A stretch of DNA of 64,000 bases. It comes from Candidatus Aquidulcis sp. (lineage in GTDB: Bacteria; Chloroflexota; Anaerolineae; UBA4142). The translations under genes and the position numbers were made by a program. How positions within the stretch are numbered: position 1 is the stretch's first letter; every line of letters begins with the position of its first letter. Location of the stretch: the NCBI GenBank assembly GCA_020723345.1, contig DYJA01000003.1, positions 12,972 through 76,971 of the forward strand, given 5' to 3'. Shown here piece after piece: positions 5,099 to 60,722 of this stretch. Below the pieces are notes generated by a model. That model did not search any database, was not told the DNA's origin, and was given only the letters and a program-made list of their open reading frames with translations.

Positions 5099-6571
5099 AT
5101 GACTCACTTTGAACTCCTCACAGCAGAACAAGTCAACGAAATCCACGCCGCGTCGCTCGAAATACTTGAGAACGTCGGTTTGCTGGTGCGGAACGAAAAC
5201 GCACGCGCGCTTTTCGCGCGGCACGGTTGCCGCGTCGACAACGCAACAAACATCGTCAAGTTTCCGCGTGCCGTCGTCGAACAATATCGCGCGGCATTTC
5301 CGCCGACGTTCACTTTTCACGGACGCGATCCAAAATATGATCGCACCATCCCACGCGATCGACCGGTGATCGTCACCGGCAGTTCCGCGCCGGATTTGGT
5401 CGATCCGGTGACCGGGCAAGTGCGCCGCGCGTACTCGGACGACATCGCGCGCATCGCGCATCTCATCAACGCGTTGCCGGGTTACGACGTGTTTTCCATT
5501 TCCACGCTCGCCGAAGACGCGCCGCCCGGTTACCACACGATCGCGCGGCTGTACCCGTCGGTGAAGAATTGTGTCAAGCCGGTACGCTGCAACGCGTTGA
5601 ACGCCGACGACGCGGAAAAAATTCTGCGACTCGGCGCGCTCGTCGCCGGAAGCGAAACCGCGTATCGCGCGCGTCCGTTCATCACGGGACATTTTTGCCC
5701 GGTCGTTTCGCCGCTCACGATGGACGTTGACTCGACCGAGATGCTGATCTATTTCACCGCGCGGCAACTGCCTAATTACGCGACGATCGTGCCAAACGGC
5801 GGAATGTCGTCGCCGCTGACGCTGCTGGGAACGCTCGCGCAAGGCAACGCGGAATTTCTCGCGTGGGCAACGTTGGCGCAAATGGCGCATCCCGAAACGC
5901 CGCTGATCTACAGTTCGCTCTCGACGCTCGCGGATATGCGGCGCGGCAACTATGCGCCCGGCGCGATCGAAACGGGGATGTTGCACATCGCGCACGCGCA
6001 AATGGCGCGGTTTTACAACGTGCCCTCCGGCGGTTACATCGGCTTGACAAATTCCAAACTGAACGACGCGCAAGCCGGGTACGAGTGCGGCATGTCGGTC
6101 GTCGCGGGGTTGCTTGGCGGCGCGGATATGTTCAACCTGGGTGGCTTGCTCGACGCGCTGACGACGTTTGACTTTGGCAAAGCGGTGACTGACAACGAAA
6201 TCGCGTTGATGCTGAAACGATTGCAGCGCGGTTTCGAATTCAGCCGCGAAAACATGTCGCTCGATCTGATCGCCGAAGCAAAGCCGGGCGGAACGTTCAT
6301 GGACAAGCCGCAGACGCTCGATTTGATGAAGACCGCGCTCTTCTTGCCGGACATCGCGGATCGTAACGTGCGCGACCGCTGGCAGAAACAAGGCGCGCTG
6401 GACGCGCAAGCGCGCGCGCTGAAACGCGTGCGTGAGATTTTGGCGCGCGATAACCCGGCGGTCTTTTCGCCGGAGGTAGACGCGCGCGTGCGCGCCGCGT
6501 TCGCCGGATTGGTCAAAGGGGATTCCGTGCCGCTGAACAGTCAACAGTCAACAGTCAACAGTCAACGGTAA
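5099..6571 (+). CDS. Second MttB-superfamily methyltransferase, non-pyrrolysine type
   Basis: 'FELLTAEQVNEIHAASLEILENVGLLVRNENARALFARHGCRVD'. No in-frame TAG. The C-terminal 'LNSQQSTVNSQR' is encoded by (CAGTCAA)n heptamers. Confidence 0.85.
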   Translation: MTHFELLTAEQVNEIHAASLEILENVGLLVRNENARALFARHGCRVDNATNIVKFPRAVVEQYRAAFPPTFTFHGRDPKYDRTIPRDRPVIVTGSSAPDLVDPVTGQVRRAYSDDIARIAHLINALPGYDVFSISTLAEDAPPGYHTIARLYPSVKNCVKPVRCNALNADDAEKILRLGALVAGSETAYRARPFITGHFCPVVSPLTMDVDSTEMLIYFTARQLPNYATIVPNGGMSSPLTLLGTLAQGNAEFLAWATLAQMAHPETPLIYSSLSTLADMRRGNYAPGAIETGMLHIAHAQMARFYNVPSGGYIGLTNSKLNDAQAGYECGMSVVAGLLGGADMFNLGGLLDALTTFDFGKAVTDNEIALMLKRLQRGFEFSRENMSLDLIAEAKPGGTFMDKPQTLDLMKTALFLPDIADRNVRDRWQKQGALDAQARALKRVREILARDNPAVFSPEVDARVRAAFAGLVKGDSVPLNSQQSTVNSQR

Positions 6572-6610
6572 TCTGTTCACTGTTTACCATTCACTGTTCA
6601 CTGTTCACTG
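6537..6610. repeat. Heptamer-repeat hairpin: (CAGTCAA)4 then (TTCACTG)n
   Basis: Read directly. The left arm supplies the last codons and the stop of the MttB-2 gene. Confidence 0.85.
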
Positions 6611-6952
6611 ATTTGACAGTATCCCAAGAGTAGTGCTACACTAGTGCAGAGCAAGTGATTCGTGATGTCGGAGGGGCGTCATGAACGGTGCGTTTGAGAT
6701 TCGATGTGGAATCAATAAAGCACGAATCGCCACGTATTCTATGATGCGCGTTATTTCTCCGCGTGTCTATTCCGGCTCGCCCGTGATTGACAATCGGGTT
6801 GTCTCTTAAGATTAGGCAGACCATTCGTTTTGGGCTGCCTATTTTCTTTTGCGTCAGCCAGACTTGGAGAGGAGGTGAGGCAATCCGGGAAATCTCTCAT
6901 CGCATTTGACCATCTACCGATTCAATTCACATTCATTCAAAGGAGGAGAAGG

Positions 6953-8203
6953 ATGAACGTCAAACGCGTTACCTGGCTCATGTTGTTCGTGATCTTAGCG
7001 GCGGTCGTCGTGGCGTGCGCGCCAGCGCCCACCGCCACGCCAGTCCCACCGACGGCTGCACCCAAGCCGACAGCTGTGCCACCGACAGCTGCGCCGAAGC
7101 CGACCGAAGCGCCCAAACCGACTACTGCACCGACGGAAGCGCCCAAGCCGACAACCGCCGCAGATCCCAGCGCGGCAGTGATGGCAAAGTTGTACGAAGA
7201 AGCGAAGAAGGAAGCCGCGCTCTCCACGATCGCGCTGCCGGACGACTGGCTGAACTACGGGGAAATGAAAAAGACCTTCCTCGCGAAATTCGCCGGCATC
7301 AAGCACAACGATCTCGATCCTCAAGCCGGTTCGACGGATGAAATCAACGCCGTCAAAGCCAACAAAGACAATAAGGGTCCGCAAGCGCCTGACACCTTGG
7401 ACGTTGGCTTTGCGTACGGCACCCAGTTGAAGGACGAGAAACTGTGCATGAACTACAAGGTCGCGGTCTGGGACACGATTCCGAATGAATTGAAAGATCC
7501 AGAAGGTTGCTGGTATGGCGAGTATTACGGCGTCTTCTCGTTCGCGGTGAACAAAGCCGTCATCAAGAATCCGCCGCAGGATTGGATGGACTTGCTCAAA
7601 CCCGAGTACAAGAACAGCATCGCGATCGCGGGCGACCCACTCTCGTCGAACCAGGCGCAGCAAGCCGTGTATGCCGCCGCGCTCGCGAACAAGGGATCGT
7701 TGGATAACGTCGCGCCAGGGCTGGATTTCTTCAAGCAACTCGCGACCTCCGGCAACCTCGTGCCGGTCATCGGCGACCAATCGAAACTCGCCAAGGGCGA
7801 AACGCCGATTCTGATCACGTGGGATTATCTCGCGCTCGGGTACAAAGACGTCCTCAAGGGGAATCCGGAACTTGAAATCGTCGTGCCCAAGTCGTTGGTG
7901 TTCGGTGGTGTGTACATCGCCGCGATCAGCGCGTATTCACCGCGTCCCAACGCCGCGAAACTGTGGATGGAGTACCTCTACTCCGATGAGGGTCAGTTGA
8001 TCTGGCTCAAAGGGTACGGTCACCCTGTTCGCTACAACGACATGGCGAAGCGCAATGTGATCCCGGCGGACCTCGCCAAGAAACTGCCGCCCGCGGAATT
8101 GTACGCCAAAGCCATCTTCCCCAGCATCACGCAACTCTCGGCGGCTCGCAAGTACGTGGCGGACAACTGGGAAAAAGTCGTCGGCACCAAGATCGCAAAG
8201 TAA
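6953..8203 (+). CDS. ABC transporter substrate-binding lipoprotein (PotD/Fe3+-type SBP family) with a Pro/Thr/Ala-rich tether
   Basis: RBS AGGAGGAG upstream. Signal peptide plus lipobox 'AAVVVAC'. Repeated 'PPTAAPKPT' linker. SBP-like body. Confidence 0.85.
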   Translation: MNVKRVTWLMLFVILAAVVVACAPAPTATPVPPTAAPKPTAVPPTAAPKPTEAPKPTTAPTEAPKPTTAADPSAAVMAKLYEEAKKEAALSTIALPDDWLNYGEMKKTFLAKFAGIKHNDLDPQAGSTDEINAVKANKDNKGPQAPDTLDVGFAYGTQLKDEKLCMNYKVAVWDTIPNELKDPEGCWYGEYYGVFSFAVNKAVIKNPPQDWMDLLKPEYKNSIAIAGDPLSSNQAQQAVYAAALANKGSLDNVAPGLDFFKQLATSGNLVPVIGDQSKLAKGETPILITWDYLALGYKDVLKGNPELEIVVPKSLVFGGVYIAAISAYSPRPNAAKLWMEYLYSDEGQLIWLKGYGHPVRYNDMAKRNVIPADLAKKLPPAELYAKAIFPSITQLSAARKYVADNWEKVVGTKIAK

Positions 8204-8212
8204 CAATTCGTA

Positions 8213-8245
8213 AGACCTGTGAGGTCTCGGAGACCTCACAGGTCT
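8213..8245. repeat. 33-nt perfect palindrome between the SBP and permease genes
   Basis: AGACCTGTGAGGTCTC G GAGACCTCACAGGTCT. Confidence 0.8.
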
Positions 8246-8258
8246 CTCACAGGTAACC

Positions 8259-9248
8259 ATGCAAACTGCCCAAACTCTTTCGTCCAGATCCGCGCCGCCG
8301 TCGCGCAAACGCAATGTGTCTTTCGCGTGGCTCGGCGTCGTGCCGTTCTTCTTGTTTGCCGCCCTCTTTTTGATTCTTCCCTCCGGCATTCTGCTCGTCG
8401 GCGCAGTGCAAGACAAACAGGGGAACTTCACCTTGGCAAATTTCGCCGGGATGTTCAAGGGCGTGTCGCTTGGGCTCGTGGCAGCGCCCTCGCAAGCGAA
8501 CTTGTTGGGGTTGACCTTTCCGCTGCCCTTCACGGTTGACTTTCAATCGAATTCGATGATCAATGCGTACATCCTCAGCATCCAGGTCAGCGTCGTGACC
8601 GCGTTCTTGGGCGGCGTCATCGGTTTTCTGCTGGCGTATGCCGCCGTCCTTGGCGGTCTGCCGAAATTCGTTCGTTCCGCGCTGCTCACGTTCTCCGGCG
8701 TTGCGTCGTACTTTTCCGGTGTGCCGCTCGCGTTTGCCTTCATCGCCACGCTCGGTCGCCTAGGATTTGTGACCGTGCTTATTCGAAACATTTTTGGATT
8801 CGATCTCTACATGACCGGCTTTTCGGTGCTGAGTTTACTGGGCTTGGTCTTGACGTACACCTATTTTCAATTTCCGCTGATGGTGCTCGTCATCACGCCC
8901 GCGCTCGATGGATTAAAGCGCGAGTGGCGCGAAGCCTCGGAGAACCTGGGCGCGAGCGCGTTCGAGTATTGGCGTCACGTTGCGTTTCCGATCATCCTGC
9001 CGTCGCTGCTCGGCACGATGATTTTGCTTTTCGGCAATTCCTTCGGCGCGGTGGCGACGGCGTACGCGCTCACCGGCGGTAACTTTCAACTCGCGACCAT
9101 CCTCATCTTCCGGCAAATTCGCGGCGAAGTGTTGCAAGATCCCGGACTCGGCTACGCCGTGGCGGTCGGCATGATCGTGGTGATGGCGCTGTCGCTCGGG
9201 CTGTACTATTGGCTCCAGCGCAGAAGCGAACGGTGGTTACGACGATGA
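8259..9248 (+). CDS. ABC transporter permease
   Basis: Multi-TM protein. The region 'LKREWREASENLGASAFEYWRHVAFP' is an EAA-loop-like motif. Confidence 0.85.
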   Translation: MQTAQTLSSRSAPPSRKRNVSFAWLGVVPFFLFAALFLILPSGILLVGAVQDKQGNFTLANFAGMFKGVSLGLVAAPSQANLLGLTFPLPFTVDFQSNSMINAYILSIQVSVVTAFLGGVIGFLLAYAAVLGGLPKFVRSALLTFSGVASYFSGVPLAFAFIATLGRLGFVTVLIRNIFGFDLYMTGFSVLSLLGLVLTYTYFQFPLMVLVITPALDGLKREWREASENLGASAFEYWRHVAFPIILPSLLGTMILLFGNSFGAVATAYALTGGNFQLATILIFRQIRGEVLQDPGLGYAVAVGMIVVMALSLGLYYWLQRRSERWLRR

Positions 9249-10033
9249 AACGAATTCCACTTTTTCCCTGGATTCTGATCTTTCTCGGCTTTTTGTACTT
9301 TTTCTTGCCGCTGATCGGCACGCTCGATTTCTCGCTGCGGCTCGTCAAGGATCAGATCACGCTCGAAGCGTACAAAAACGTGGTGACCTCGGCGCGTTTC
9401 CAAAACACATTCACCTACTCGTTCATCATGGCGCTGTGGACGATTGTCGCCGCGACGCTCCTCGTCACGCCGACAGTTTACTGGGTGCATCTGAAATTGC
9501 CGCACCTGCGTCCGATCGTCGAATTTATCACGCTGCTCACGTACGTGGTCCCGGCGATCATCCTCGTGTTTGGCTTGATCCGGATCTACAGTCGTCCGCC
9601 GCTGTCTCTGCTGGAAAGCGAAATCGGCTCCGACTTTTTGCTCGTGATGGGTTACGTCTCGCTCGCGCTGCCCGCGATGTATCGCTCGGTGGATGCGGGC
9701 TTGCGCGCGATTGACGTGCGGACGCTCACCGAAGCCGCGCAGAGTTTAGGCGCGGGCTGGCGCACGATCCTTTTGGACGTCATCTTTCCGAACTTGCGCG
9801 TCGCGCTGCTCAGCGGCGCTTTCGTCACCTTCGCGATGGTCATCGGCGAATTTACGATTGCGACTTTTCTCGCGCGTCCCGCGTTCGGTCCGTACATGGC
9901 GAACCTGGGACAGACGCGTCCGTACGAATCCACCGCGCTCACGATCATCAGTCTCGCGCTGACGTGGGCGTGCATCGGCATGATGCAGTTGCTCGGGCGC
10001 GGCGCGCAAGGGCAGATCGCGGGCACGCGATAA
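9245..10033 (+). CDS. ABC transporter permease
   Basis: ATGA overlap with the upstream permease. 'TLTEAAQSLGAGWRTILLDVIFP' is an EAA loop. Confidence 0.85.
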   Translation: MKRIPLFPWILIFLGFLYFFLPLIGTLDFSLRLVKDQITLEAYKNVVTSARFQNTFTYSFIMALWTIVAATLLVTPTVYWVHLKLPHLRPIVEFITLLTYVVPAIILVFGLIRIYSRPPLSLLESEIGSDFLLVMGYVSLALPAMYRSVDAGLRAIDVRTLTEAAQSLGAGWRTILLDVIFPNLRVALLSGAFVTFAMVIGEFTIATFLARPAFGPYMANLGQTRPYESTALTIISLALTWACIGMMQLLGRGAQGQIAGTR

Positions 10034-10035
10034 AT

Positions 10036-10099
10036 CAGTCAACAGTGAACAGTGAACAGTAAACGGTCTACTGTTCACTGTTCACTGATCACTGTTCAC
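10036..10099. repeat. Heptamer-repeat hairpin (CAGTGAA)n / (TTCACTG)n
   Basis: CAGTCAACAGTGAACAGTGAACAGTAAAC ggtc TACTGTTCACTGTTCACTGATCACTGTTCACTG. Confidence 0.85.
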
Positions 10100-10109
10100 T
10101 GGAGTAACT

Positions 10110-11183
10110 ATGGCATTCCTCGAACTCACCAACATCAGTAAAGTATTTGGGCAAACCCCGGCAGTGCAGGATTTCAACTTGCAGGTCGAAAAGGGAGAAT
10201 TCGTTTCGTTCCTGGGACCCAGCGGCTGCGGCAAGACGACGACGCTGCGCATGATCGCGGGGTTTGAACTGCCGACGACGGGCACCGTCGTCGTCAACGG
10301 AAACGACGTGACGAACAAGCCGCCGCAAAAGCGCAACACCGGAATGGTGTTTCAGGCGTACGCGCTTTTTCCCAACATGAACGTCGCGGAGAATATCGGC
10401 TTTGGCTTGAAGATCGCGCGCAAACCCAAAGACGAAATCAAAAAACGCGTGGAAGAAGTGCTGGCGATCATCAAGATGGAAAGTTTCGGCAATCGCTATC
10501 CGTATCAGTTGTCCGGCGGTCAGCAGCAGCGCGTCGCGCTCGCGCGCGCGCTCGCGATTCAGCCGCAAGTGCTGCTGCTCGACGAGCCGCTCTCCGCGCT
10601 CGACGCAAAAATCCGCGTGTCGCTCCGCCAGGAAATCCGCGCGATCCAGCAAAAACTCGGCATCACCACAGTTTACGTGACACACGACCAGGAAGAAGCG
10701 CTGTCGCTGTCCGATCGCGTGGTCGTGATGAACAACAGCAAGATCGAACAGGTCGGCACGCCGTTCGAGATTTACAATTTCCCAAAGACCGAATTCACCG
10801 CGCAATTCGTCGGCACGCTCAATTCGATCCCGGCGACGGTGCGCCACGCCGCGAACGGCGAACTCACGGTGGACAGTCAAACACTTGTCACCGCGCAAAA
10901 GTTGGCAGGCATCGCGGACGGCGAAGCCGTCATGATCTCGATTCGCCCCGAACGAATAAGTTTTGCTTCCGAAGGTCGCAAGCCGAACGTGCTGAACATC
11001 AAAGTCGAGAACATCACGTTCCTGGGTTCGATCGTGCGGGTGCAGGTGCGCGCAGGCGAACACCTTTTCTTGATGGACACGTTCAACAACCCCTTCCTCA
11101 AACTGCCGGAGGTTGGCGATAAAGTTGAGATCACTTTCTCGAAGGAGGCGGTGTTGGTGTTGCGGCATGCCAGCCAAATTTGA
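10110..11183 (+). CDS. ABC transporter ATP-binding protein (PotA/CysA-like)
   Basis: Walker A 'GPSGCGKTT', signature 'LSGGQQQRVALARAL', Walker B 'LLLDEPLSALD'. Confidence 0.95.
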   Translation: MAFLELTNISKVFGQTPAVQDFNLQVEKGEFVSFLGPSGCGKTTTLRMIAGFELPTTGTVVVNGNDVTNKPPQKRNTGMVFQAYALFPNMNVAENIGFGLKIARKPKDEIKKRVEEVLAIIKMESFGNRYPYQLSGGQQQRVALARALAIQPQVLLLDEPLSALDAKIRVSLRQEIRAIQQKLGITTVYVTHDQEEALSLSDRVVVMNNSKIEQVGTPFEIYNFPKTEFTAQFVGTLNSIPATVRHAANGELTVDSQTLVTAQKLAGIADGEAVMISIRPERISFASEGRKPNVLNIKVENITFLGSIVRVQVRAGEHLFLMDTFNNPFLKLPEVGDKVEITFSKEAVLVLRHASQI

Positions 11184-11207
11184 CAATCGATCCGCTTTCG
11201 CTATAAT
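11180..11207 (+). promoter_or_regulatory. Sigma-70-type promoter of the his operon
   Basis: TTGACA (11180-11185), 16-nt spacer, TATAAT (11202-11207). About 150 nt upstream of hisD. Confidence 0.6.
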
Positions 11208-11358
11208 GAGGGCAGAATGTTAACCGAGAGGTTCGCCTTCAAGTATCATTTTACGAGCGGGGTGGATCGCTAGAGCGATTCGCCGATTTTGGCGTACCCG
11301 ATTCACCCCCAAGAGACAAGTCCAAATGCGGCTTGTCTTTTTTGTTTCTGAGAAGAAG

Positions 11359-12762
11359 ATGGTTGAGATCATTACTGGCATCCGAGCCGGACGCGCAAAA
11401 ATCCTGCAGCGGCGTGGGCGGCTGACCGAAACCGTTCCGCCTACGCTCGCCGACCGATTGCAGAAAACTTTTGGCGAGCCGCTGACGCCCGAGCAAGCCG
11501 TTGCGCGCATCATCGCCGACGTGCGCGCGCGCGGCGACGCGGCGCTGCGCGACTGGACGCGCCAACTCGACGGGGTCGCCCTCTCGTCGATCGCGGTGAC
11601 GCCGGACGAAATGGACGCGGCGTACGCGGAAACGCCGAGCGCGGTGCGCGACGCGCTCGCGCGCGCGGCGGCACGCATTCGCGCGTTTCACGAAAAGCAG
11701 AAACCAAAATCGTGGTTGTCAGGTAGGGGCGAAACATTCGCGCGAGTGCGTTCGCAATTCAACGAAGATGTGCGTTTCATGGAAGATAGAAATGCGGAAG
11801 ATGACTTGAATGCTTCGCCCCTACTGGGGCAACGCATCATTCCGCTCGCGCGCGTCGGCGTGTACGTGCCGGGCGGTACCGCGCCCCTGCCCTCGTCGCT
11901 GCTCATGTCTGCGATTCCCGCGCAGGTCGCGGGCGTGCGTGAGATCGTCGTCGCGACGCCGCCCACGATCGCGCCTGCGATTCTCGCGGCGGCAAAAATC
12001 GTAGGAGTCACGCGCGTCTATGCGCTGGGCGGCGCGCAGAGCATCGCCGCGCTCGCGTTCGGCGCGGAATCCGTCGCGCGCGTCGACAAGATCGTCGGCG
12101 CGGGCGGCTTGTTCACGACGATAGCGAAGCGGCAAGTGTTTGGCGCGGTCGGCATTGACGGCTTGTACGGTCCAACGGAAACGCTGCTGATCGCGGACGA
12201 TTCCGCGCATCCCGCGTGGTGCGCCGCGGATCTGCTCGCGCAAGCGGAGCACGACATACTCGCGACGAGCATTCTGGTTACCACTTCCCGGTTACTCGCT
12301 GATCAAGTCGCTCAAAATCTCGAATCTCAAATCTCCAATCTCTCCCGACGCGCAATCATCGCGCAATCTCTCGCCAGCCAGGGCGCGATCATCATCGTCG
12401 AAAATTTGGACGAGGCGATGGAGTTGGGCAACGCATTCGCGCCGGAGCACCTATGCCTGCTCGTGCGCGAACCCTGGAACTGGGTGGGCAAAGTAGAGAA
12501 CGCGGGCGGCGTGTTCGTGGGCGAGTGGACGAACGAAGCGCTCGGCGATTACGTGATCGGTCCGAGCCACGTGATGCCGACGGCGGGCACCGCGCGCTTT
12601 TCGTCGCCATTGAACGTGAACGATTTTGTGAAAATCACGAGCGTGTTCAGCGTGAGCGCGCGTGAGGCGCGTCAACTCGGCGAAACCGCGGCGACGCTCG
12701 CGGAAGCAGAGGGGCTGACCGCGCACGCGAACGCGATCAGACAACGAATGAGGAACGAATAG
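11359..12762 (+). CDS. hisD: Histidinol dehydrogenase carrying two in-frame repeat insertions
   Basis: 'VGVYVPGGTAPLPSSLLM', 'LAQAEHD' and 'APEHL' motifs. See findings for the 102-bp TIR element (11723-11824) and the (AATCTCN)4 tract (12316-12343). Confidence 0.9.
   Translation: MVEIITGIRAGRAKILQRRGRLTETVPPTLADRLQKTFGEPLTPEQAVARIIADVRARGDAALRDWTRQLDGVALSSIAVTPDEMDAAYAETPSAVRDALARAAARIRAFHEKQKPKSWLSGRGETFARVRSQFNEDVRFMEDRNAEDDLNASPLLGQRIIPLARVGVYVPGGTAPLPSSLLMSAIPAQVAGVREIVVATPPTIAPAILAAAKIVGVTRVYALGGAQSIAALAFGAESVARVDKIVGAGGLFTTIAKRQVFGAVGIDGLYGPTETLLIADDSAHPAWCAADLLAQAEHDILATSILVTTSRLLADQVAQNLESQISNLSRRAIIAQSLASQGAIIIVENLDEAMELGNAFAPEHLCLLVREPWNWVGKVENAGGVFVGEWTNEALGDYVIGPSHVMPTAGTARFSSPLNVNDFVKITSVFSVSAREARQLGETAATLAEAEGLTAHANAIRQRMRNE
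11723..11824. mobile_element. 102-bp miniature element with 17-bp terminal inverted repeats, in frame inside hisD
   Basis: GTAGGGGCGAAACATTC at 11723-11739 and GAATGCTTCGCCCCTAC at 11808-11824 are reverse complements (16/17). Length is 34 codons. Confidence 0.7.
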
Positions 12763-12990
12763 ACGAATGGCACGCGGGCAGGATGAGTCAACAACGGAGG
12801 AGCATCCAAGATGAAACAGCCACTTTCCATCGGGATCAGTTGAGACAATTCGACATCCGCTGATCGTCGCGTATTTGAAAGCGGCTCTGGCGCAGGAGCG
12901 CACGCGTAGCTAATCGAGAAGAAAAGCAATCCGGCTAGAGGTGGCCGGCGGCATAGCCAAAGTAGGCACATTCCTTGAAGGAGGGACTTG

Positions 12991-14064
12991 ATGAACGGTT
13001 TCGATGCCAGCACTTTGTTGCGGCAGGACTTGCTCAACTTTCCGCCGTACCGAATGGCGGCGGTGAAAATCGCGGACATGGATCGCGTGATCAAACTGGA
13101 CGCGAACGAGAATGCGTTTGGACCATCGCCGAAGGCGCTTGCGGGGCTTGCGGCGATGCGTCACTGGAATCGCTACGCGACCCAGGATGAACTGCGTCCC
13201 GCGATTGCGAGTTACGTCGGAGTCGATCCGGCGCACATCGTCGTCGGCAACGGCGGCGATGAACTGCTCGATCTGTTGGAGCGCGCATTTTTGAATCGCG
13301 GCGACGCGATCGTCGACCTGCCGCCTTCGTTTGAGATGTACGCCAAGTACGCGGAGGTGAATGGTGGGCGCGTGATTGCGGTGCCGCGCCGCGCCGATTT
13401 CTCGATTGACGTGGACACGCTCAAGCGCGTGGTGGCGCAAGACAAGCCCAAGATCATCTTCGTCGCGAACCCGAACAACCCAACGGGGACGCTCTTGTCG
13501 CGCGAGGAAATCGAACGCGTCCTCGCGCTGCCCGCGCTCGTCGTGCTGGACGAAGCGTACGCGGAGTTTGCGGGTGAAAGTTACGTCGACCGCGTGCCGA
13601 CCCAGCCCAATCTGTTCGTTCTGCGCTCGTTCAGCAAGTGGGCAAGTTTGGCAGGTTTGCGGATTGGCTACGGCGTCGCGCCAGTACGCATCGCGGACCA
13701 GCTTTTCCGAAACAAGTCGCCGTACAACGTGAACGCCGCGGCGATCGTCGCCGCGCAGGCGTCCTTGGAGGACAAGGAGTATTTGCTCGCCAACGTGCGC
13801 CGGGTCGTCGCCGAGCGCGAACGATTGACGGACGCGCTGACGCGCCTCGGCTATTTGCAGCCCTTCCCCAGTCGCACGAATTTCATTCTCTGCCGCGTGA
13901 AGCGATGCGATGCGCGCGGGCTGCGCGACGCATTGGCGGAACGGAACATCTTGATTCGCGCCGTTACGAATCCGCAGTTGCGCGACTGCATTCGCATCAG
14001 CGTCGGGACGCCGGAACAAAACGCGACGCTGCTGCGCGCGTTGGAAGAACTCACGCCCGCGTGA
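12991..14064 (+). CDS. hisC: Histidinol-phosphate aminotransferase (copy 1)
   Basis: 'LDANENAFGPSP', 'NPNNPTG' and PLP-lysine 'SFSKWASLAGLRIGY'. RBS GAAGGAGGG. Confidence 0.9.
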   Translation: MNGFDASTLLRQDLLNFPPYRMAAVKIADMDRVIKLDANENAFGPSPKALAGLAAMRHWNRYATQDELRPAIASYVGVDPAHIVVGNGGDELLDLLERAFLNRGDAIVDLPPSFEMYAKYAEVNGGRVIAVPRRADFSIDVDTLKRVVAQDKPKIIFVANPNNPTGTLLSREEIERVLALPALVVLDEAYAEFAGESYVDRVPTQPNLFVLRSFSKWASLAGLRIGYGVAPVRIADQLFRNKSPYNVNAAAIVAAQASLEDKEYLLANVRRVVAERERLTDALTRLGYLQPFPSRTNFILCRVKRCDARGLRDALAERNILIRAVTNPQLRDCIRISVGTPEQNATLLRALEELTPA

Positions 14065-14087
14065 GTCCATCCCAGCCAAGGATAAAT

Positions 14088-15212
14088 ATGTCGAATTTTG
14101 ATGCCACCAAATTGCTCCGCGAAGACCTGAACGATTTTCCGCCGTACTCGATGGGACACGTGCCGCTCGCGGAGTTGGACTCGCTCGTCAAGTTGGACTT
14201 GAACGAAAACACGTACGGACCGTCGCCCAAGGCGCTCGCCGCCGTCGCGCAGATGCGGCACTATCACCGCTACGTCGGACAGCAGGAATTGCGCGAGGCG
14301 ATCGCGCGCTATGTCGGCGTGGGGGTGGAACACATCGTCACCAGCAACGGCGCGGACGAGATGATCGATCTGGTGCAGCGCATGTTCCTCAATCACGGCG
14401 ACGCGATTGTGGACTGCCCTCCGTCATTCGAAATGTACGCGTTCTTCGCGCGCGTGAACGGCGCGCGGATCGTCCGTGTTCCACGGCGAGAGGATTTTTC
14501 CGTCGACGTGGATGCGGTAGAAAAAGCGATTTCAGATTTCAGATTTCAGATTTCAGATTCTGCAAACCCGACTGCGGAATCTCTCATCTCCAAGCTCCAA
14601 TCTCCAAAGTTGGTATTCCTCGCCAACCCCAACAACCCCGACGGCATGATGATCCCGCCTGCCGATGTGGAACGACTGCTCGCGCTGCCGGCGCTCCTCG
14701 TACTCGACGAGGCGTACGCGGAATTTGCTGGGCAGAGTTACGCCGCGCGCGTGCCGACCCAATCGAATTTGATCGTGCTCCGAACGTTCAGCAAGTGGGC
14801 GGGGCTGGCGAGTCTGCGGGTCGGCTACTGCATCGCGCCGCAGGCGATCGCGGCGAAAATTCTCCAATGCAAAGCGCCGGAGAATGTGAACGCGGCGGGA
14901 AACGTAGCGGCGCGCGCGTCGCTCGACGACCTTGAATATCTGCACGCGAATGTGCGCCGCATTGTCGCGGAACGCGAACGCCTGGCGGGAGAATTCGGGA
15001 AACTCGGCTTTCTCCAGCCCCTGCCCAGCCGCGCGAATTTTCTCTTCTGCCGCGTGCTCGGGCGCGACGCCAGGCAAATCCACGATGCGCTCGCCGGGCA
15101 CGGCATTTTGATCCGCGCATTCGGCGCGCCGCGCTTGCGCGAGTACATTCGCATTGCCATCGGAACGCCGGAGGAAAATGAGACCGTGTTGAAGGCGCTG
15201 AGGGAAATGTGA
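14088..15212 (+). CDS. hisC: Histidinol-phosphate aminotransferase paralog (copy 2) with an in-frame heptamer insertion
   Basis: Same motifs ('LDLNENTYGPSP', 'NPNNPDG', 'TFSKWAGLASLRVGY'). (GATTTCA)4 and AATCTCC-type heptamers at 14528-14612 encode 'SDFRFQISDS...SLISKLQSPK'. Confidence 0.85.
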   Translation: MSNFDATKLLREDLNDFPPYSMGHVPLAELDSLVKLDLNENTYGPSPKALAAVAQMRHYHRYVGQQELREAIARYVGVGVEHIVTSNGADEMIDLVQRMFLNHGDAIVDCPPSFEMYAFFARVNGARIVRVPRREDFSVDVDAVEKAISDFRFQISDSANPTAESLISKLQSPKLVFLANPNNPDGMMIPPADVERLLALPALLVLDEAYAEFAGQSYAARVPTQSNLIVLRTFSKWAGLASLRVGYCIAPQAIAAKILQCKAPENVNAAGNVAARASLDDLEYLHANVRRIVAERERLAGEFGKLGFLQPLPSRANFLFCRVLGRDARQIHDALAGHGILIRAFGAPRLREYIRIAIGTPEENETVLKALREM

Positions 15213-15247
15213 TTGGCGGAGGCGTGTTTCGCGAAAGATGAACAGAG

Positions 15248-16447: not shown

Positions 16448-16459
16448 TTGAGTGACAAG

Positions 16460-17074: not shown

Positions 17075-17128
17075 CACGAAATTCGTATTGCGTGTTGCGT
17101 GTTGCGTGAAATCCAATCTCCAATCTCT

Positions 17129-51500: not shown

Positions 51501-52172
51501 GCGGAACGAACCGCGTGCCTCGGTGAAACCGCGCGAACGAAACGTGTCCCATTCTTCGTAGATGAAACCTGGTGCCTGCCCTGAGCTTGTCGAAGGGTCG
51601 GGTCCCTGGGTCGGCAGCGTCTCCGCCGAATCGTTGCGAACGGTGATGCTCACGCTGAGCAAGCCGCCGGTGTTCAGCGTCGTCGGCGCGAGCGTCGCGT
51701 GCGTGATCGTCACCGCGCCTGCCGGATTCACCGTGATCGTCTGCGCGCCTTGCCGATCTTGCAGCCACGCGATTCGCTCGCGCACGAGTCCCGCCCAGTA
51801 CTTGATCGCGCGCGCGGTTCGCAATCGGATCGCACCGGAGATGACGCGCGTCTCGCCGGGCGCGAGCGGCGCGCCGAGTCCCCAGCGGTACGGGTGGTCA
51901 ATTCCCGCGCGTCCGTCAAAGTCCACGCCGACACGAAACGCGTTCGCGATATCGGGGAAGCCGCGCGTGTAGAACGTGTCGCCGTCGTCGTAGACGAAAC
52001 CGGGCGCGGGGTCTTGCGTCGCGAGCGTCTCGGTCGAATCGTTGCGAACGGTGATGGTGACGTTCAGCAAATCGCCGGAGTTGAGCGACGTGGGAGAAAA
52101 AGTGACGTTGGTGATTTGTGGCGCGGCGGCGGGTAAAACGTCGTCGCGGTGATCGGAATGGTTGGTGGGCAT
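48567..52172 (-). CDS. Large multidomain protein: 3 tandem ~135-aa repeats, 2 Ig-like repeats, C-terminal DUF2961/GH172 domain
   Basis: Repeats 'VTI(T)VRNDS.ETL.TQ(G)PDP.FVY.EGDTF..RGF....AFRVG.DFDGR...DHP.RWGLGAPLAPG'. C-terminus 'YLEGDERIYIDD...HGTGTEDFFNGGWYY'. Confidence 0.85.
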   Translation of the reverse strand: MPTNHSDHRDDVLPAAAPQITNVTFSPTSLNSGDLLNVTITVRNDSTETLATQDPAPGFVYDDGDTFYTRGFPDIANAFRVGVDFDGRAGIDHPYRWGLGAPLAPGETRVISGAIRLRTARAIKYWAGLVRERIAWLQDRQGAQTITVNPAGAVTITHATLAPTTLNTGGLLSVSITVRNDSAETLPTQGPDPSTSSGQAPGFIYEEWDTFRSRGFTEARGSFRVGIDFDGRAAQSVDHPFRWGLGAPLAPGQTATITGAIRLRTTRAVKYWAGLVREQIAWLQDRQGEQAIAVKPGIITITSATLAPTAISAGNLLNVSITVRNDSLETLQTQGPDPDFVYDEGDTFRSRGFTETIDAFRVGVDFDGRTGVDHPYRWGLGAPLAPGETRTITGAIRLQTARAINYWCGLVREQVLWLHDQQGAQTITVVPIATQSFTATPSAIEVGGSATLQWTVTDAHAVSLDGETVPPIGSRVVAPTQTTTYALRVVLLDGTTRDLAATVTVVPKKVATFTVTPNSIMPGTPATLAWNTESATQVTLDGEIVPTSGTRVVTPTQTTTYNLHVVFGDGVTKDLSVTLTVEQSGLAAMLQFERLPFLRTNILAGGQSSYDRTGGNADFSNYLYTDAHGDFVLCDLKGPGTIYRLWVTGFNRDLARIKFYFDGETTPRVDMLMNTLFAGETAPFLSPLVDDDGVSSGGYYCYLPMSFSRSIKITANGTRGTNFYYNVNYHLYTPDTIVQTWTGAEDSSTVRTLWSRVTQDPKSDAGNLTATGTINLDIGSTRTMFELDGPRAFSSIKLRVPGVVATPSSAVWDILNGTWIRIYWDRESNPSVAAPLGSFFGIGQFSTHRAKSLAAGIDDSSALYIYFPMPFEHHARIELFNSRGVALNGISYEIKHKAFASSFAQVGYFKTQFNNQIHTGGDGTDVTILDVAGAGHFVGVVLSIIGEANRMYLEGDERIYIDDNRSPAIHGTGTEDFFNGGWYYRGGPFSLPVHGLAANVHDASFDRTAQYRLFLADAIPFNRRLTVGIEHGQVNDVSEQVWALAYYYHQPTARAILTDTLDVGNAASEASHEYVVMNATWSGESSYSYEGVHPDAIGDTGRAHNGYSQFAMTIQPANDGVILRRRLNYGIGNQNADVYVDGARVGSWYRAGRNSARWRDDDFMIPASFTQGKNKITIRVVFVSSDSDWNEFTYWAISLIS

Positions 52173-57480: not shown

Positions 57481-57600
57481 TTTCCCTCTAGTCAATCAGA
57501 CGATCAGGCAATCAGTAATCAGGCAATTAGGCAGCCAAACAATCGGTCGACCGATTGACCGACTACCGATCGACCGATTGCCCGATTGCCTGATTGACCA
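57481..57600. repeat. Heptamer-repeat hairpin (AATCAGG / GATTGCC / CGATTGA family) overlapping the 3' end of the CCA-enzyme gene
   Basis: TAGTCAATCAGACGATCAGGCAATCAGTAATCAGGCAATTAGGCAG...CGACCGATTGACCGACTACCGATCGACCGATTGCCCGATTGCCTGATTGACC. Confidence 0.8.
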
Positions 57601-60226
57601 ACAGCTCTTCTTCGGCGCGCGTCGAAATTTCGCCGTCCAGCCGCGCGTCGCGCAATCGTTCGAGAATGTGACGATATTGCGGACCGGGGCGGATGCCCAT
57701 GCGTTTGAGATCGTCGCCGGTCAATTCGGGCGCGATACCGCGCACGCGCGTGCGGAACAGCGCGATGCGTTCGCGCGCGCGTTCGTCGTCAGTCGCCAAT
57801 GCAAAGAGCGCGAGCGCGTCGTCGCCATAATCCACGAGCAAACGATAGAGCGCGCTCGGCGCAAGCGCATCGACGCGTAGGCGCGGCTCGACCTCCGCGC
57901 GCAACGCGAGCAATTGCAGGATCGTTTCGATTTCCGCGTTCGGGAGCCGCAAGCGTCGGCAAAATTCAGCCGCAGCCGACGGCGTCAGATGGTACGCCAG
58001 CAAACCCAGGTACGTCACCGCCGTCGGCGTCCTGACCCTTCGACTATCGCTCAGGGGGGCGGCATCCTGAGCGATAGTCGAAGGATTTGCCGCGAAGTCG
58101 AAGGATTCTGCCGCGCGCGCTTGCTGAAACTTGCTCGCGTGCCAATCCGAAAAATCGAGCGGCGCAAAGATCGCTTTGAGCGCGCCGAGTTCGTGCGCGC
58201 GCGCCAACGCCTTTTCCGGCTCGCGCTCACGAAAGATCAGAGTGAACTCGTGGCGAATCCGTTCGCCGCTGACGCGCGTAAACATATCGAGCGCGTCGCC
58301 GATCAGGCGCGCGGTGCGCGGCTCGATCTTGAAACCGAACCGCTGCTCAAAACGCGCGGCGCGCAAAATCCGCGTCGGGTCTTCGATGAAACTCAGGTTG
58401 TGCAGAACGCGGATCAGCCCGCGCTGCAAATCCGCTTCGCCGCCGAACGGATCGAGCAATTGCCCGTACCGCTCCGGATCGAGGCAAATCGCGAGCGTGT
58501 TGATCGTAAAATCGCGGCGATGCAGGTCTTGCTTGATCGAACTCGTTTCGACTTCGGGCAACGCGGAAGGATGCGCGTAAAATTCCGTGCGCGCGGTGGA
58601 GAAATCGAGAGAGGAAAGATGAGAAATGAGAGATGAGAGTTTCCTGTCTTGCGTCTCTCCGCTTTCATCTTTCATCTCTTTCAGCATCCACTTCGCCGTG
58701 CCAAAGCGCGTGTGTCCGTGAACGCGTCCGCCGTATTTTTTTTGCAATGCCTGCGCGAGCGCAATCGCGTCGCCTTCGACGACGAGGTCGAGATCGAGAT
58801 TGGGCTGGTTGAGCAAGAGATCGCGCACAAAACCGCCGACGATGTACAAACTGAATCCCAGGTCGTGCGCGAGCTGGCTCGCATCGCGCAAGAGCGCGAG
58901 CAGTTCCGACGGCAGCCATTTCTCCAGACGCGCCGCCATTTCTTCCGCGCGCGTCGGACGCTGTTTGCCCCACGGTTTGATGAGATCGGTACGCGTGACG
59001 ATGCCGATAATGCGACTGTCTTTGACGACGGGCACCTGCCCCAAATCGCTCTCGATCATCACCGCGCGCAATTTGTCGAGCGAATCGTCCGGCGTGACCG
59101 CCGCCGGCTTTTGCATCAGGTTTTTGATCGGCGCGTTCAAGAGTTTGTGGCGCGCCGCGCGATCAATTTCGCGTCGCGTCACGACGCCGACGAGTTTGCC
59201 GCGCCGCACGACCGGAAAACCTTCGTGCCCGTAGCGATTCATCGCTTCGGCGGCTTGCGCGACCGTCGTCGTCGTCGCCAGCGTGTGCGCGCCGAATGAC
59301 ATGACGTGACGCACGAGCAGCGACGGCTTGATCGACGCGTTGAGCGATTTGATCAATTTCGATTTTGCCTGACGCAGCGTCATACCGCGAATCAGCGCGG
59401 CAGCGGCTTTGTCGTGTCCGCCGCCGCCGAACGCGGCGGCAGTCGCGGCAACGTCAATTTCCGCGCGTTCGGAACGCGCGACCAGTTGGATGTGATCGTC
59501 CATCTGCACGAGGAGAAAGAGCGCGGCGGGATCGTACATTTCGCGCAGTTGGTGCGCCAGCGTCGAAACCTCGTCGACGTAACCGGCGGCGCGCGCGGCG
59601 GCAAGCGCGATCGCGTGCCCGGCAATTTCGACGGTCTCGATTTTTTCGATGAGTTGCTGATACAATTTGTGCTGCGCGGCGGTGAGCGGCGGGTGCAGAA
59701 ATTCGTTGACGATGGCAAGCCGCGCGGCGCGTTCGAGCAGAAACGCGGCGGCGCGCGCGTCGCGCGGCGTCGTCGTGACGTAGGTGAGCGCGCCGGTATC
59801 TTCGTAAATGCCGAGCAATAACAGCGTCGCTTCAATCGGCGTGAGCGGCAATTCCTTGTCGCTGATCTGTTCGACGAAGAGCGTCGTCGTCGCCCCGGCT
59901 TCGCCGCCGGAAAACGTCATGCCGGGTTTGAGATCGCGCGTGAGTGGGTGGTGGTCGATGAAATGCATCCGCGTCTTGGGCGTGACGCCGCGCGCGGATT
60001 GAACACCCTGGCTGTCGACGACGACAATCGCGCGGAAATGTTGGCGCGGCAAATCTTCGGGACGCGCAAAGGGGAGCGCATCGGCGTAGAGCGCGCAAAA
60101 ATCGCGCACGTTGCGATTGAGGCGGCGCGGCAAAATCGGGAGCGCGTCGGGATAGATTTTCTTCGCGCCGAGCAGCGCGGCGAGCGCGTCGAAATCGGCG
60201 TTCTCGTGCGTGAGGATCGCGTCCAT
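57563..60226 (-). CDS. DHH/DHHA1-CBS-poly(A) polymerase/CCA-adding nucleotidyltransferase fusion protein with two in-frame repeat insertions
   Basis: 'HENADFDALAA', 'GGGGHDKAAAA', CBS pair, 'YIVGGFVRDLLL...DLDLVVEG', 'TARTEFY', 'RRDFTINTLA'. Insertions at 58037-58107 and 58600-58683. Confidence 0.9.
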   Translation of the reverse strand: MDAILTHENADFDALAALLGAKKIYPDALPILPRRLNRNVRDFCALYADALPFARPEDLPRQHFRAIVVVDSQGVQSARGVTPKTRMHFIDHHPLTRDLKPGMTFSGGEAGATTTLFVEQISDKELPLTPIEATLLLLGIYEDTGALTYVTTTPRDARAAAFLLERAARLAIVNEFLHPPLTAAQHKLYQQLIEKIETVEIAGHAIALAAARAAGYVDEVSTLAHQLREMYDPAALFLLVQMDDHIQLVARSERAEIDVAATAAAFGGGGHDKAAAALIRGMTLRQAKSKLIKSLNASIKPSLLVRHVMSFGAHTLATTTTVAQAAEAMNRYGHEGFPVVRRGKLVGVVTRREIDRAARHKLLNAPIKNLMQKPAAVTPDDSLDKLRAVMIESDLGQVPVVKDSRIIGIVTRTDLIKPWGKQRPTRAEEMAARLEKWLPSELLALLRDASQLAHDLGFSLYIVGGFVRDLLLNQPNLDLDLVVEGDAIALAQALQKKYGGRVHGHTRFGTAKWMLKEMKDESGETQDRKLSSLISHLSSLDFSTARTEFYAHPSALPEVETSSIKQDLHRRDFTINTLAICLDPERYGQLLDPFGGEADLQRGLIRVLHNLSFIEDPTRILRAARFEQRFGFKIEPRTARLIGDALDMFTRVSGERIRHEFTLIFREREPEKALARAHELGALKAIFAPLDFSDWHASKFQQARAAESFDFAANPSTIAQDAAPLSDSRRVRTPTAVTYLGLLAYHLTPSAAAEFCRRLRLPNAEIETILQLLALRAEVEPRLRVDALAPSALYRLLVDYGDDALALFALATDDERARERIALFRTRVRGIAPELTGDDLKRMGIRPGPQYRHILERLRDARLDGEISTRAEEELLVNQAIGQSVDR

Positions 60227-60350
60227 TGGGGAGAATTATAGCACAGTTGGGGAATCGGTCAATTAGTCAATCCGGCAATCGGAGATCGGTCAATCCGGCA
60301 ATCAGGAAGCAGAATACTGGTTGCCTGATCGCCGGATTGACTGATTGCCT

Positions 60351-60387: not shown

Positions 60388-60461
60388 CCTCCCCGGCGAG
60401 GCTCGAACTCGCAACCTCAGCCTCCGCAGGGCTGCGCGCTATCCAATTGCGCTACGGGGAG
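60388..60461 (-). tRNA. tRNA-Arg (anticodon GCG), CCA not encoded
   Basis: Reverse complement: CTCCCCG TA GCGC AATTGGATA GCGC G CAGCC CTGCGGA GGCTG AGGTT GCGAG TTCGAGC CTCGC CGGGGAG G. Folded by hand. Confidence 0.85.
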
Positions 60462-60465
60462 ATAT

Positions 60466-60536
60466 CCCAGTATTCAGTGTCCAGTAAACAGTAATCAGAC
60501 TGAATACTGAACACCGAATACTGAATACTGAACGCA
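60466..60536. repeat. Heptamer-repeat hairpin (CAGTATT family) between tRNA-Arg and tRNA-Ser
   Basis: CCCAGTATTCAGTGTCCAGTAAACAGTAATCAGACTGAATACTGAACACCGAATACTGAATACTGAAC. Confidence 0.8.
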
Positions 60537-60537
60537 G

Positions 60538-60633
60538 CGGAGGGGGCGGGATTTGAACCCGCGACAGCGGCTTTTAGGACCACTGTAGTCACTTAGCAGG
60601 CGACCGCACTAGACCAAACTATGCGACCCCTCC
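60538..60633 (-). tRNA. tRNA-Ser (anticodon GCT) with a long variable arm
   Basis: The reverse complement starts GGAGGGG TC GCAT...GTGC G GTCGC CTGCTAA GTGAC. Variable arm ACAGTGG-loop-CCGCTGT, T-arm GCGGG TTCAAAT CCCGC, acceptor CCCCTCC G. Confidence 0.8.
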
Positions 60634-60635
60634 AG

Positions 60636-60722
60636 GAAATTTGGAAATTAGAAATTGGACGTTAGAAGTTGGATGGTTGCGGCGGGTCAAACTTCCAACT
60701 TCTAATTTCCAACTTCCGATTC
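60636..60722. repeat. Heptamer-repeat hairpin (GGAAATT / AAGTTGG family) between the two tRNA-Ser genes
   Basis: GGAAATTTGGAAATTAGAAATTGGACGTTAGAAGTTGGATGG...CAAACTTCCAACTTCTAATTTCCAACTTCCGATTCC. Confidence 0.8.

Follow-up and report, generated by a model that had tools for sequence, protein, structure and literature searches.

The window discussed here is a stretch of 64,000 nucleotides from Candidatus Aquidulcis sp. (GCA_020723345.1, contig DYJA01000003.1, positions 12,972 to 76,971 of the forward strand), in which tandem arrays of 7-nt words occupy spacers between genes and also lie within the genes for several conserved enzymes. We think it rather probable that these tracts are the arms of palindromic elements found throughout the lineage, resembling in texture the short tandemly repeated repetitive (STRR) sequences of cyanobacteria and in stem architecture the intervening sequences (IVS) of 23S rRNA, and mostly without an open reading frame (ORF). 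In the full form the loop would carry a ribosome-binding site and a gene of the TIGR02436/PF05635 IVS-protein family. The host is an uncultured Chloroflexota lineage: HisF is 93% identical to a protein from a 'Chloroflexota bacterium' metagenome-assembled genome (MAG), and the next matches are from Chloroflexi and Anaerolineae MAGs.

Heptamer arrays and their hairpins

A first-pass annotation, made from the sequence by eye of a model, had described heptamer tracts as pervasive, and the counts bear this out. Tandem Repeats Finder gives 35 period-7 arrays in the window, whereas 20 second-order Markov simulations yield 2.4 on average and never more than 6. When only exact tracts with 2.5 copies or more are counted, there are 18 of period 7, and none of period 6 or of periods 8-12. 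For background we took 1.30 Mb around hisF at 81 other loci, drawn from bacteria at large among the matches listed and including a single close relative; these hold 23 exact period-7 tracts (again at least 2.5 copies), 13 of them in three loci, namely the close relative and two loci of other phyla. The density of arrays is about 1 per 2 kb in the window and in its relatives alike. The G+C content of the arrays is about 46% and that of the window 58%, which is moderate and not the high value previously stated. The non-genic 12.7% of the window holds 51% of array bases, an enrichment of about 7-fold per base.

In the usual layout a 7-nt word (sometimes 8-10 nt) is repeated 3-15 times, and a short loop separates this array from its reverse complement. 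Most arrays are paired in this way, the two members often being able to align in several registers, and the resulting hairpins have energies of -30 to -67 kcal/mol. Those listed in the first-pass annotation fold at -30 to -51 kcal/mol on the + strand, and the hairpin at 57481-57600 reaches -67.5 kcal/mol on the transcribed (-) strand. They fill most operon spacers from stop codon to start codon. Heptamer arms do form most of the intergenic hairpins, as had been claimed, but those at 36057-36131, 57493-57599 and 29228-29293 have periods of 8 or 9, and the hisI-hisE hairpin at 19551-19619 also has a period other than 7 (10).

The words fall into recurrent groups (all positions are on the + strand unless marked otherwise). 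In the CAGT class, the two-arm hairpin at 6536-6610 has (AACAGTC)x4.4 followed by (CTGTTCA)x5.4, and its first arm encodes the C-terminus of MttB (...PLNSQQSTVNSQR*). An intergenic hairpin with (CAGTGAA)x4.1 / (ACTGTTC)x4.6 separates a permease gene from an ABC ATPase gene (10036-10101) and has 85% identity to the element at 6538-6603, and a third hairpin (16399-16448, AGTGAAC / GACTGTT) fills the spacer between the imidazoleglycerol-phosphate dehydratase gene and hisH. The AATCTCC group includes (AATCTCC)x5 at 28671-28705, over a methyltransferase stop codon and the 5' region of a NUDIX gene; the hairpin (GGAGATT)x4.1 / (AATCTCT)x4.1 at 29834-29900, which runs from the HacB stop codon to the ATG of the homoisocitrate/isocitrate dehydrogenase gene; and the direct-only array (AATCTCC)x7.9 at 36892-36946, which ends at the ATG of a DeoC-like gene. 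The last of these and 29869-29902 have 34-nt AATCTCC stretches that are 91% identical, each ending at an ATG. The 69-nt period-10 hairpin of the hisI-hisE spacer (19551-19619, CACTGATAAA / TATCTGTGTT) has dispersed copies at 2951-3019 and 48485-48553, with 74-75% identity.

Other spacers hold other words. There are hairpins between hisF and hisI (19158-19205, (TGATGCG)x3.4 with its complement), between lysX and the homocitrate synthase (HCS) gene (21252-21330, (TGATTTA)x5 / (TAAATCC)x3.9), and, with period 9, between the NUDIX and HacB genes (29228-29293, (CACAGAGAA)x3 / (CTGTGTCCC)x2.6, -44.7 kcal/mol). Three abutting arrays at 22486-22588, (AAATGAC)x6.4, (CGTGATG)x3.7 and (CAATTAC)x3.7, cover the HCS C-terminus, the spacer and the HacA N-terminus. 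The direct arrays (CGTGTTG)x3.6 and (TCCAATC)x2.3 at 17084-17127 abut ATG 17129, probably the true start of hisA, which would place them upstream of the gene. Period-8 hairpins encode the C-termini of an amidohydrolase (36057-36131, GGCAATCA... / ...TGATTGCC, -50.8 kcal/mol) and of the A-adding/CCA-type nucleotidyltransferase (57493-57599, - strand, within the -67.5 kcal/mol structure given above). Termini encoded by arrays had been proposed for MttB, HisA, the amidohydrolase and the CCA enzyme (C-termini) and for HacA (N-terminus), and in each case we agree. Upstream of the CCA-type enzyme gene, all on the - strand, are a period-8 array between tRNA-Arg and the gene start (60268-60303, (CAATCCGG)x4.6), a hairpin that is the whole tRNA-Ser(gct) - tRNA-Arg spacer (60466-60536) and another that is the whole tRNA-Ser(tga) - tRNA-Ser(gct) spacer (60636-60722, GAAATTG / AACTTCC). 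Two hairpins are thus exactly the spacers that separate three tRNA genes, which had been missed, as had the fact that the words form genome-specific families.

As regards signals in these hairpins, we considered whether they are intrinsic terminators and rejected this, as no heptamer hairpin in 5000-24999 is among the terminator-like sites (G+C-rich stem and T run) and such sites are not enriched (35 vs 30.5 +/- 5.7). The hairpins match no known RNA family in Rfam. For the intergenic hairpins the sense fold is the more stable in five cases and the antisense fold in the others, and among the strongly folding in-gene hairpins the antisense fold is more stable in 7 of 10; in these mixed results neither strand is consistently favoured, and they give no clear sign, by way of G-U pairs, that the RNA fold is under selection. 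Matches to sigma-70-like promoters are present at 6613-6642 directly after the MttB hairpin (10/12), at 11180-11207 before hisD (12/12) and at 19979-20007 before lysW/lysX (11/12), and may mark operon starts.

The tract-rich region is a run of biosynthetic operons. It includes genes for MttB and an ABC transporter; hisD, two hisC-like genes, a histidine phosphatase gene, hisB, hisH, hisA, hisF, hisI and hisE; and lysX with the genes for homocitrate synthase, homoaconitase, HacB and homoisocitrate dehydrogenase. There are no rRNA genes in the window.

In-frame copies and their fate in relatives

Four enzymes have true in-frame insertions of 16-20 residues, as judged by alignment to solved structures. 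The second HisC-like aminotransferase (14528-14607, (GATTTCA)x4.6 ... (CTCCAAG/AATCTCC)) has about 20 residues that are absent from PDB 8bj4, and the large subunit of homoaconitase, HacA (23310-23397, two arms, (AAATTCA)x5.1 ... (GAATTAC)x3.7), has about 19 that are absent from the Methanocaldococcus enzyme M. jannaschii 4nqy. The A-adding/CCA-type tRNA nucleotidyltransferase (58607-58677, - strand, two arms, sense strand GAAAGAT... / ...CTCTCAT) has about 19 that are absent from 3h37. In HisF (18749-18816, (AAAATTC/AAAATCG)x9.7) there are 16 more residues than in 4evz, directly after the AIDAK strand, a motif which we take to hold the catalytic Asp. The AlphaFold model of HisF has a predicted template modelling score (pTM) of 0.83, and insert residues 142-152 have a predicted local distance difference test score (pLDDT) below 50, which is consistent with the insert being a floppy surface loop. 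All four insertions are absent from homologues of unrelated phyla, so the earlier proposal that in-gene tracts are insertions stands for these enzymes. It does not stand for HisD, where the tract at 12315-12342, (AAATCTC)x4, conserved in the relative L087, encodes QNLESQISNLS; this aligns at equal length to EIEKQLGSLA of a relative that has no repeat, and we reject an insertion there.

Reading frames are open through every in-gene tract, and as the in-gene copies keep frame and avoid stops, translation is implied. The first-pass annotation had argued that, 7 and 3 being coprime, three units are read in all three frames and only total length has to be a multiple of 3. This fits: for arrays wholly inside genes the sense strand of the consensus unit is stop-free in all three frames in all but one case, and that array has 2.3 copies, too few for every frame to be read. 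Several intergenic words (CAGTGAA, TGATTTA and others) do contain stops.

Some further observations on these enzymes may be recorded here. HisD has a separate 33-residue insert (11722-11820, GRGETFARVRSQFNEDVRFMEDRNAEDDLNASP), absent from L087 and L089, with 51% G+C, complementary ends GGGCGAA...TTCGCCC and a fold only about 2 standard deviations below shuffles; it may be an old, degenerate element. HisF (gene 18342-19160) has a second insert of 5 residues (GKAEK, residues 24-28) in the beta1-alpha1 region, which is common to one subclade of relatives and absent from the other, and coincides with a low-confidence segment of the model (residues 21-31). The tandem genes for HisC-like class I/II aminotransferases (12988-14064 and 14088-15212) have 236 nt in common at 74% identity, and only the second has the heptamer insertion.

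Syntenic loci with 73-93% HisF identity are available from several relatives (L001, L002, L082, L084-86, L087/88 and L089), and period-7 arrays are abundant in every one of them, with 29 in 20.8 kb of L087 and up to 14.6 copies in an array. Three other Chloroflexota loci have almost none. Both copy number and word change between relatives while the site persists. The AAATGAC array of the HCS-HacA spacer has 6.4 copies in the window, 14.6 in L087 and 5.4 in L082. At the HisC-like, HacA and HisF insertion sites different genomes have two-arm hairpins of different heptamers, L087, L085 and L082 for example having other words at the HacA site. The coding DNA of the window and L001 is about 90% identical, and yet the hisA-hisF, hisF-hisI and hisI-hisE spacers of the two hold unrelated hairpins, that of hisF-hisI in L001 having period 8. 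The HisF insert and the lysX-HCS hairpin are nearly unchanged between these two genomes, the latter differing by point changes.

The HisF loop was followed in 120 homologues, among which its length ranges from 5 to 42 residues. The recurrent peptide families in this loop are translated palindromes, such as RRKTEDERR...SSVVRPSS, LKVKSQKEKVE..SNLQSPISNLQ and RIANSELGIANS..NSQFAIRNSR; they are scattered over the tree and some are nested. The close HisF relatives P0005-P0009 have no insert.

The vocabulary is small. In 78 elements of seven genomes there are 111 word incidences but only 56 canonical heptamers, where 106 are expected at random (minimum 98 in 1000 draws); the count is of exact canonical words, since single-linkage clustering at one mismatch merged everything. 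Each genome has favourite words that return at sites which are not orthologous: in the window these are AATCTCC (4 sites) and the CAGT class, in L087 GACGAAG (5) and AATGACG (4), and in L089 ATTGCAG (3). The shared vocabulary and dispersed near-copies indicate copying or homogenisation between sites, and are not predicted by simple slippage.

Paired arrays were also seen near hisF in two more distant genomes: GGTTCAC/GTGAACC in L069, a Methylomirabilota MAG (8456-18881, and inside the HisF region at 10405-10473), and GAACGTC/CGTTGGA in L005, Geminisphaera colitermitum TAV2 (11478-13446). The phenomenon thus reaches beyond Chloroflexota and cyanobacteria.

A cassette for a four-helix-bundle protein

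The spacer between hisA and hisF contains an ORF of 150 codons (17866-18318) that matches PF05635, '23S rRNA intervening sequence protein', at 7.8e-33 and TIGR02436, 'four helix bundle protein', at 7.3e-31. The complete IVS-like cassette (17829-18331, + strand) consists of a left arm (17829-17854, AGTATTCAGTGTTCAGTATTCAGT) that doubles as coding sequence for the HisA tail and is followed by GGAGG, then the gene, and a right arm (18306-18331, CACTGAACACTGAATACTGAACACTG) that is the reverse complement of the left. Both arms are built of heptamers and the gene thus lies in the loop of a heptamer hairpin, the only such element in the window. The arms of the tRNA-spacer hairpin at 60466-60536, which has no ORF and is 42 kb away, match the cassette stems at 24/25 and 23/25 positions. 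At the hisA-hisF site L001 has a hairpin with no ORF, and in L087 both arms remain but only about 25 codons from the 3' end of the ORF are left, joined in frame to hisA; this half-deleted form indicates that the cassette can decay towards an ORF-less hairpin. We considered whether the protein could be the Avd of a diversity-generating retroelement, and rejected this: the Avd model gives 47 bits against a cut-off of 80, and it is also not such a retroelement because no reverse transcriptase was found in the window.

The resemblance to rRNA IVS lies in the complementary termini that form a long stem and in the S23p / four-helix-bundle ORF in the loop. IVS of 23S rRNA with such an ORF are known in Salmonella, Leptospira and Coxiella, and that of Coxiella has a stem which RNase III cleaves, with tandem GACAGAT heptamers in a copy number that varies between strains (PMC4990558). 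They differ in being inserted in helix 25 or 45 of 23S rRNA, whereas the window cassette lies between hisA and hisF and the window elements in general are in mRNA or tRNA operon spacers and protein-coding genes, with no ORF in most copies. The solved relatives of the IVS protein are nucleic-acid-binding pentamers.

The association of gene and arrays is general. We fetched 80 metagenomic loci with 58-67% identical homologues, 75 of which have both flanks, and compared the 130 nt upstream with the 130 nt downstream; shuffles served as control, the flanks of different loci being unusable for this as they have words in common (maximum score 110). Flanks are reverse-complementary above the 99th percentile of shuffles in 71 of the 75 loci (median score 41 vs 14), and in 52 of the 75 the upstream stem is (CAGTNNN)n and the downstream stem (NNNACTG)n; ATAACTG, which is the same as TAACTGA, is the most frequent 3' word. 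A Shine-Dalgarno-like motif precedes the start codon in 72 of the 75. The ORF is co-oriented with its neighbours (45:9 upstream, 61:4 downstream), which suggests expression by operon read-through.

In cultured organisms, a tblastn search of 72,556 plasmids gave 32 records, nearly all from filamentous cyanobacteria (Nostoc 17, Calothrix 3, others). Inverted period-7/8 arrays surround the ORF in 13 of the 14 loci inspected, these being 12 cyanobacterial plasmids and one Azospirillum 23S rRNA IVS. The flanking words are AGCAGGGG/CCCCTGCT in Nostoc, ACAGGTG/CTGTCAC in Anabaena 90 and TTAGCTG/AGCTAAA in Calothrix, and the locus of Azospirillum lipoferum 4B is a genuine 23S rRNA IVS with GAGGACG/GTCTTCT arrays. 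The exception is Oscillatoria PCC 7112, with direct G-rich arrays on both sides. The statement in the first-pass annotation that nothing in the window explains a mechanism was thus too pessimistic, given an IVS-protein gene in a hairpin loop and the generality of the association. Our literature search on the four-helix-bundle family together with heptamers found only the Coxiella IVS paper, although the general link may stand in literature outside that search.

With regard to the neighbours of these plasmid genes, a tyrosine recombinase/integrase gene adjoins the four-helix-bundle gene in 5 of 12 inspected cyanobacterial plasmid loci (L170, L175, L176, L177 and L180, from Nostoc, Tolypothrix, Brasilonema and Aphanizomenonaceae plasmids). 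On the Anabaena sp. 90 plasmid pANA02 (L181) the cassette with its ACAGGTG/CTGTCAC arrays lies between cas6 and cas4 of a CRISPR-Cas locus.

Relation to known repeats, and origin of the elements

Heptanucleotide repeats have been on record since 1990 and serve in the fingerprinting of strains, but to our knowledge their origin and function are still unexplained, and the same applies to the rRNA IVS and their conserved small ORF. The STRR repeats of heterocystous cyanobacteria, reportedly described by Mazel et al. in 1990, a paper cited in PMC4692102, have head-to-tail 7-nt units, many words and many dispersed copies that are mostly intergenic, and the likeness drawn in the first-pass annotation holds in kind. 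The units of STRR1-3 are said to be CCCCAGT, TTGGTCA and CAACAGT, the last of which we take to be STRR3 of Calothrix; AACAGTC, with 4.4 copies at 6536-6566, is a rotation of it. The STRR1 and STRR2 units in this form were not seen in the window, and most window words differ. There is a link in that Nostoc, Calothrix and Anabaena-type cyanobacteria supply almost all of the plasmid homologues of the cassette protein, and our reading turned up no publication that connects STRR with a gene family. The window elements differ in host, Chloroflexota rather than a heterocystous cyanobacterium, and in near-universal pairing of complements into long hairpins, periods of 8-10 and in-frame copies in housekeeping enzymes.

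The TAACTGA repeats of marine Beggiatoaceae, cyanobacteria and Bacteroidetes (MacGregor 2015, PMC4679880) are also heptamers that lie just upstream of starts or over ORF ends, with few in ORFs and those in the stop-free orientation, and ATAACTG, their rotation, is the commonest 3'-arm word around the metagenomic cassettes. However those of Beggiatoaceae are of one word, in 169 direct sets and one inverted, with no hairpins or associated gene reported (PMC4679880). The GGGAATC / GGGGAYT repeats of Xanthomonas and Nostoc (Rehm et al. 2015, PMC4692102) are intergenic heptamer arrays, some in inverted pairs, and the intergenic sites that related species share vary widely in length and sequence; they are G-rich and quadruplex-forming, whereas the window words are about 46% G+C, have no G-runs and form hairpins. 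Repetitive extragenic palindromic (REP) sequences, and the bacterial interspersed mosaic elements (BIMEs) and REP doublets (REPINs) that they form, are short extragenic palindromes between operon genes, with dispersed families within a genome and possible roles in mRNA stability. The operon-spacer copies of the window, which also form dispersed families of palindromes, run parallel to them, but REP elements have conserved family sequences, a cognate REP-associated tyrosine transposase (RAYT) and no tandem-repeat arms, and are not in coding sequence (PMC3116915). No cognate RAYT (IS200/IS605-like) was found among the window proteins scanned, and for this reason we do not regard the elements as REPINs.

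The closest parallel for the in-frame copies is with Rickettsia palindromic elements (RPE), which were reportedly found in frame in conserved genes by Ogata et al. in 2000. In both cases the surface segments of essential proteins tolerate in-frame palindromic DNA of a selfish kind, which is absent from orthologues, as in the HisC-like enzyme, HisF, HacA and the CCA-type enzyme. RPE differ in being 100-150 bp in length, in few sequence families and with no tandem 7-nt texture, and we know of no cassette gene for them; from the tandem-repeat texture of the window elements one would expect no sequence relationship to the RPE families. Literature searches found nothing on heptamer repeats in Chloroflexi or Anaerolineae. 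The novelty lies in the host, a member of Chloroflexota, in the systematic arrangement as hairpins, in the persistence of in-frame sites and, most of all, in the link to a four-helix-bundle cassette.

Several other explanations have to be weighed. The tracts could be plain microsatellites, without element identity or mobility, in a lineage whose polymerase slips preferentially by 7 nt, a type of slippage proposed by Mrazek and colleagues in 2007 according to the account in PMC4679880. The dominance of period 7 over 6 and 8-12, the change from 6.4 to 14.6 or 5.4 copies of one word at one site, the presence of heptamer arrays in phyla as unrelated as those of L069 and L005, and the standing of 7-nt repeats in the literature as the commonest class of long simple sequence repeats all suit this. 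However slippage alone makes no reverse-complement second arm beside nearly every array, and it leaves unexplained the small shared vocabulary with genome-specific favourites, the 25-nt arms that are almost the same at a distance of 42 kb, the 69-nt period-10 family with its dispersed copies and the systematic bracketing of one gene family, so that we find it unlikely. More is to be said for cis-regulatory RNA structures selected at their sites, of REP/BIME or RNase III type, with the heptamer texture a by-product. The hairpin stays at the same spacer or codon position across relatives though its sequence is replaced, spacers are occupied by elements all the way from stop to start codon, at three genes an AATCTCC array ends precisely at the start codon, two hairpins are tRNA precursor spacers, and heptamer repeats near start codons are known from the literature to affect expression in Nostoc. 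Against this are the hairpins inside coding loops of four enzymes, which it does not explain, the nearest HisF relatives (P0005-P0009) that lack the insert, fold energies without consistent strand asymmetry and sites that are not terminator-like. As the whole explanation it has a modest chance of being correct; as a secondary, exapted role it is compatible with the palindromic elements that we propose.

Miniature elements of the REPIN type or the miniature inverted-repeat transposable element (MITE) type, mobilised in trans by a RAYT or IS200/IS605-like enzyme whose gene lies elsewhere in the genome, would account for dispersed families within one genome and for insertions nested in loops, and the recombinase genes beside 5 of the 12 inspected cyanobacterial plasmid cassettes also point that way. 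We nevertheless consider them quite improbable, as there is no transposase or RAYT domain among about 50 window proteins scanned, the words are too diverse for one sequence-specific enzyme and no target-site duplications are evident. Finally, the source is a MAG and repeats are error-prone, so an artefact of assembly or polishing at low-complexity tracts was an obvious concern, and one raised in the first-pass annotation. It can be set aside almost completely: no in-gene tract interrupts its reading frame, elements are present at the same sites in independent NCBI, JGI, ENA and Logan assemblies, the gene maps of L087 (ENA) and L088 (JGI) are identical over about 24 genes with equal coordinates and product lengths, and finished plasmids of cultured cyanobacteria show the same architecture. 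Taken as a whole the first-pass interpretation is partly supported.

We return to STRR-like palindromic elements with IVS-type stems as the preferred explanation. Under it slipped-strand mispairing would make arrays grow and shrink, and the arms would stay complementary through fold-back or template-switch copying, or because pairing is selected. Recombination or conversion, with arrays as the homology, could move words and cassettes between hairpins, and internal deletion of cassettes would yield at least part of the ORF-less hairpins. By analogy with rRNA IVS the RNA stems may be substrates for RNase III, which would cut polycistronic precursors at spacers. An in-gene copy would persist only if its word is stop-free, its length is a multiple of 3 and it lies in a tolerant surface loop, and it would then be translated as a neutral peptide loop.

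There are several difficulties with this proposal. In this lineage only the CAGT word class is tied to the cassette; none was seen with AATCTCC, AAAATCG, GACGAAG or other non-CAGT words, which may thus have another origin. There is one cassette to about 20 ORF-less elements in the window, and the reverse direction, in which cassettes home into the loops of pre-existing hairpins, fits most data equally well. Cuts by RNase III inside coding regions would destroy mRNAs, which sits badly with the persistence of in-gene copies, and sense folds are not consistently stabler than antisense folds. Some arrays are direct only (36892-36946, and both flanks in Oscillatoria PCC 7112), and no enzyme for spread was identified.

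Three features of the window that lie apart from these elements are noted for completeness. A c-di-AMP (ydaO-type) riboswitch at 34984-35117 (-), with 88.5 bits, is upstream on the minus strand of ORFs that include one for a caspase-domain (Peptidase_C14) protein (33818-34714), an unusual downstream gene. The last 87 nt of the homoaconitase gene (23830-23916) are duplicated with 84% identity at 24430-24516, 600 nt downstream and just before a DapB-like gene; no frame is open on the + strand over the intervening 600 nt, a position at which L082 carries an ATP-grasp gene, and the duplication is probably a rearrangement scar or pseudogene. The gene for a DUF2961 protein of 1201 residues (50429-52118, -) has internal DNA repeats with a period of about 405-438 nt and 68-83% identity, which suggest repeated domains.

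A wider proposal, which we put forward as a speculation with the balance of probability well against it, is that bacterial heptamer repeats (STRR, TAACTGA and the heptamers of rRNA IVS) are the stems or footprints of one class of selfish cassette built around an Avd-like IVS protein. If this is true, the protein would recognise the arrays or help to propagate them, for example with a host reverse transcriptase or recombinase, the rRNA IVS would be the special case of a cassette that landed in rRNA, and ORF-less derivatives would have colonised operon spacers, tRNA spacers and enzyme loops in this Chloroflexota lineage.

For genome annotation, the tracts are a source of spurious extensions at N- and C-termini and of 'hypothetical' peptides in MAGs. 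The four enzymes also provide a clear case outside Rickettsia of palindromic DNA in frame near the catalytic strand of essential enzymes, which will be useful for the study of loop tolerance. Above all the locus links heptamer repeats with an IVS-protein gene, by way of repeat-built stems in Chloroflexota, cyanobacteria and one true rRNA IVS, and the question of why the period is 7 becomes testable, through binding of the protein to arrays, cutting by RNase III and comparison of protein copy number with array density.

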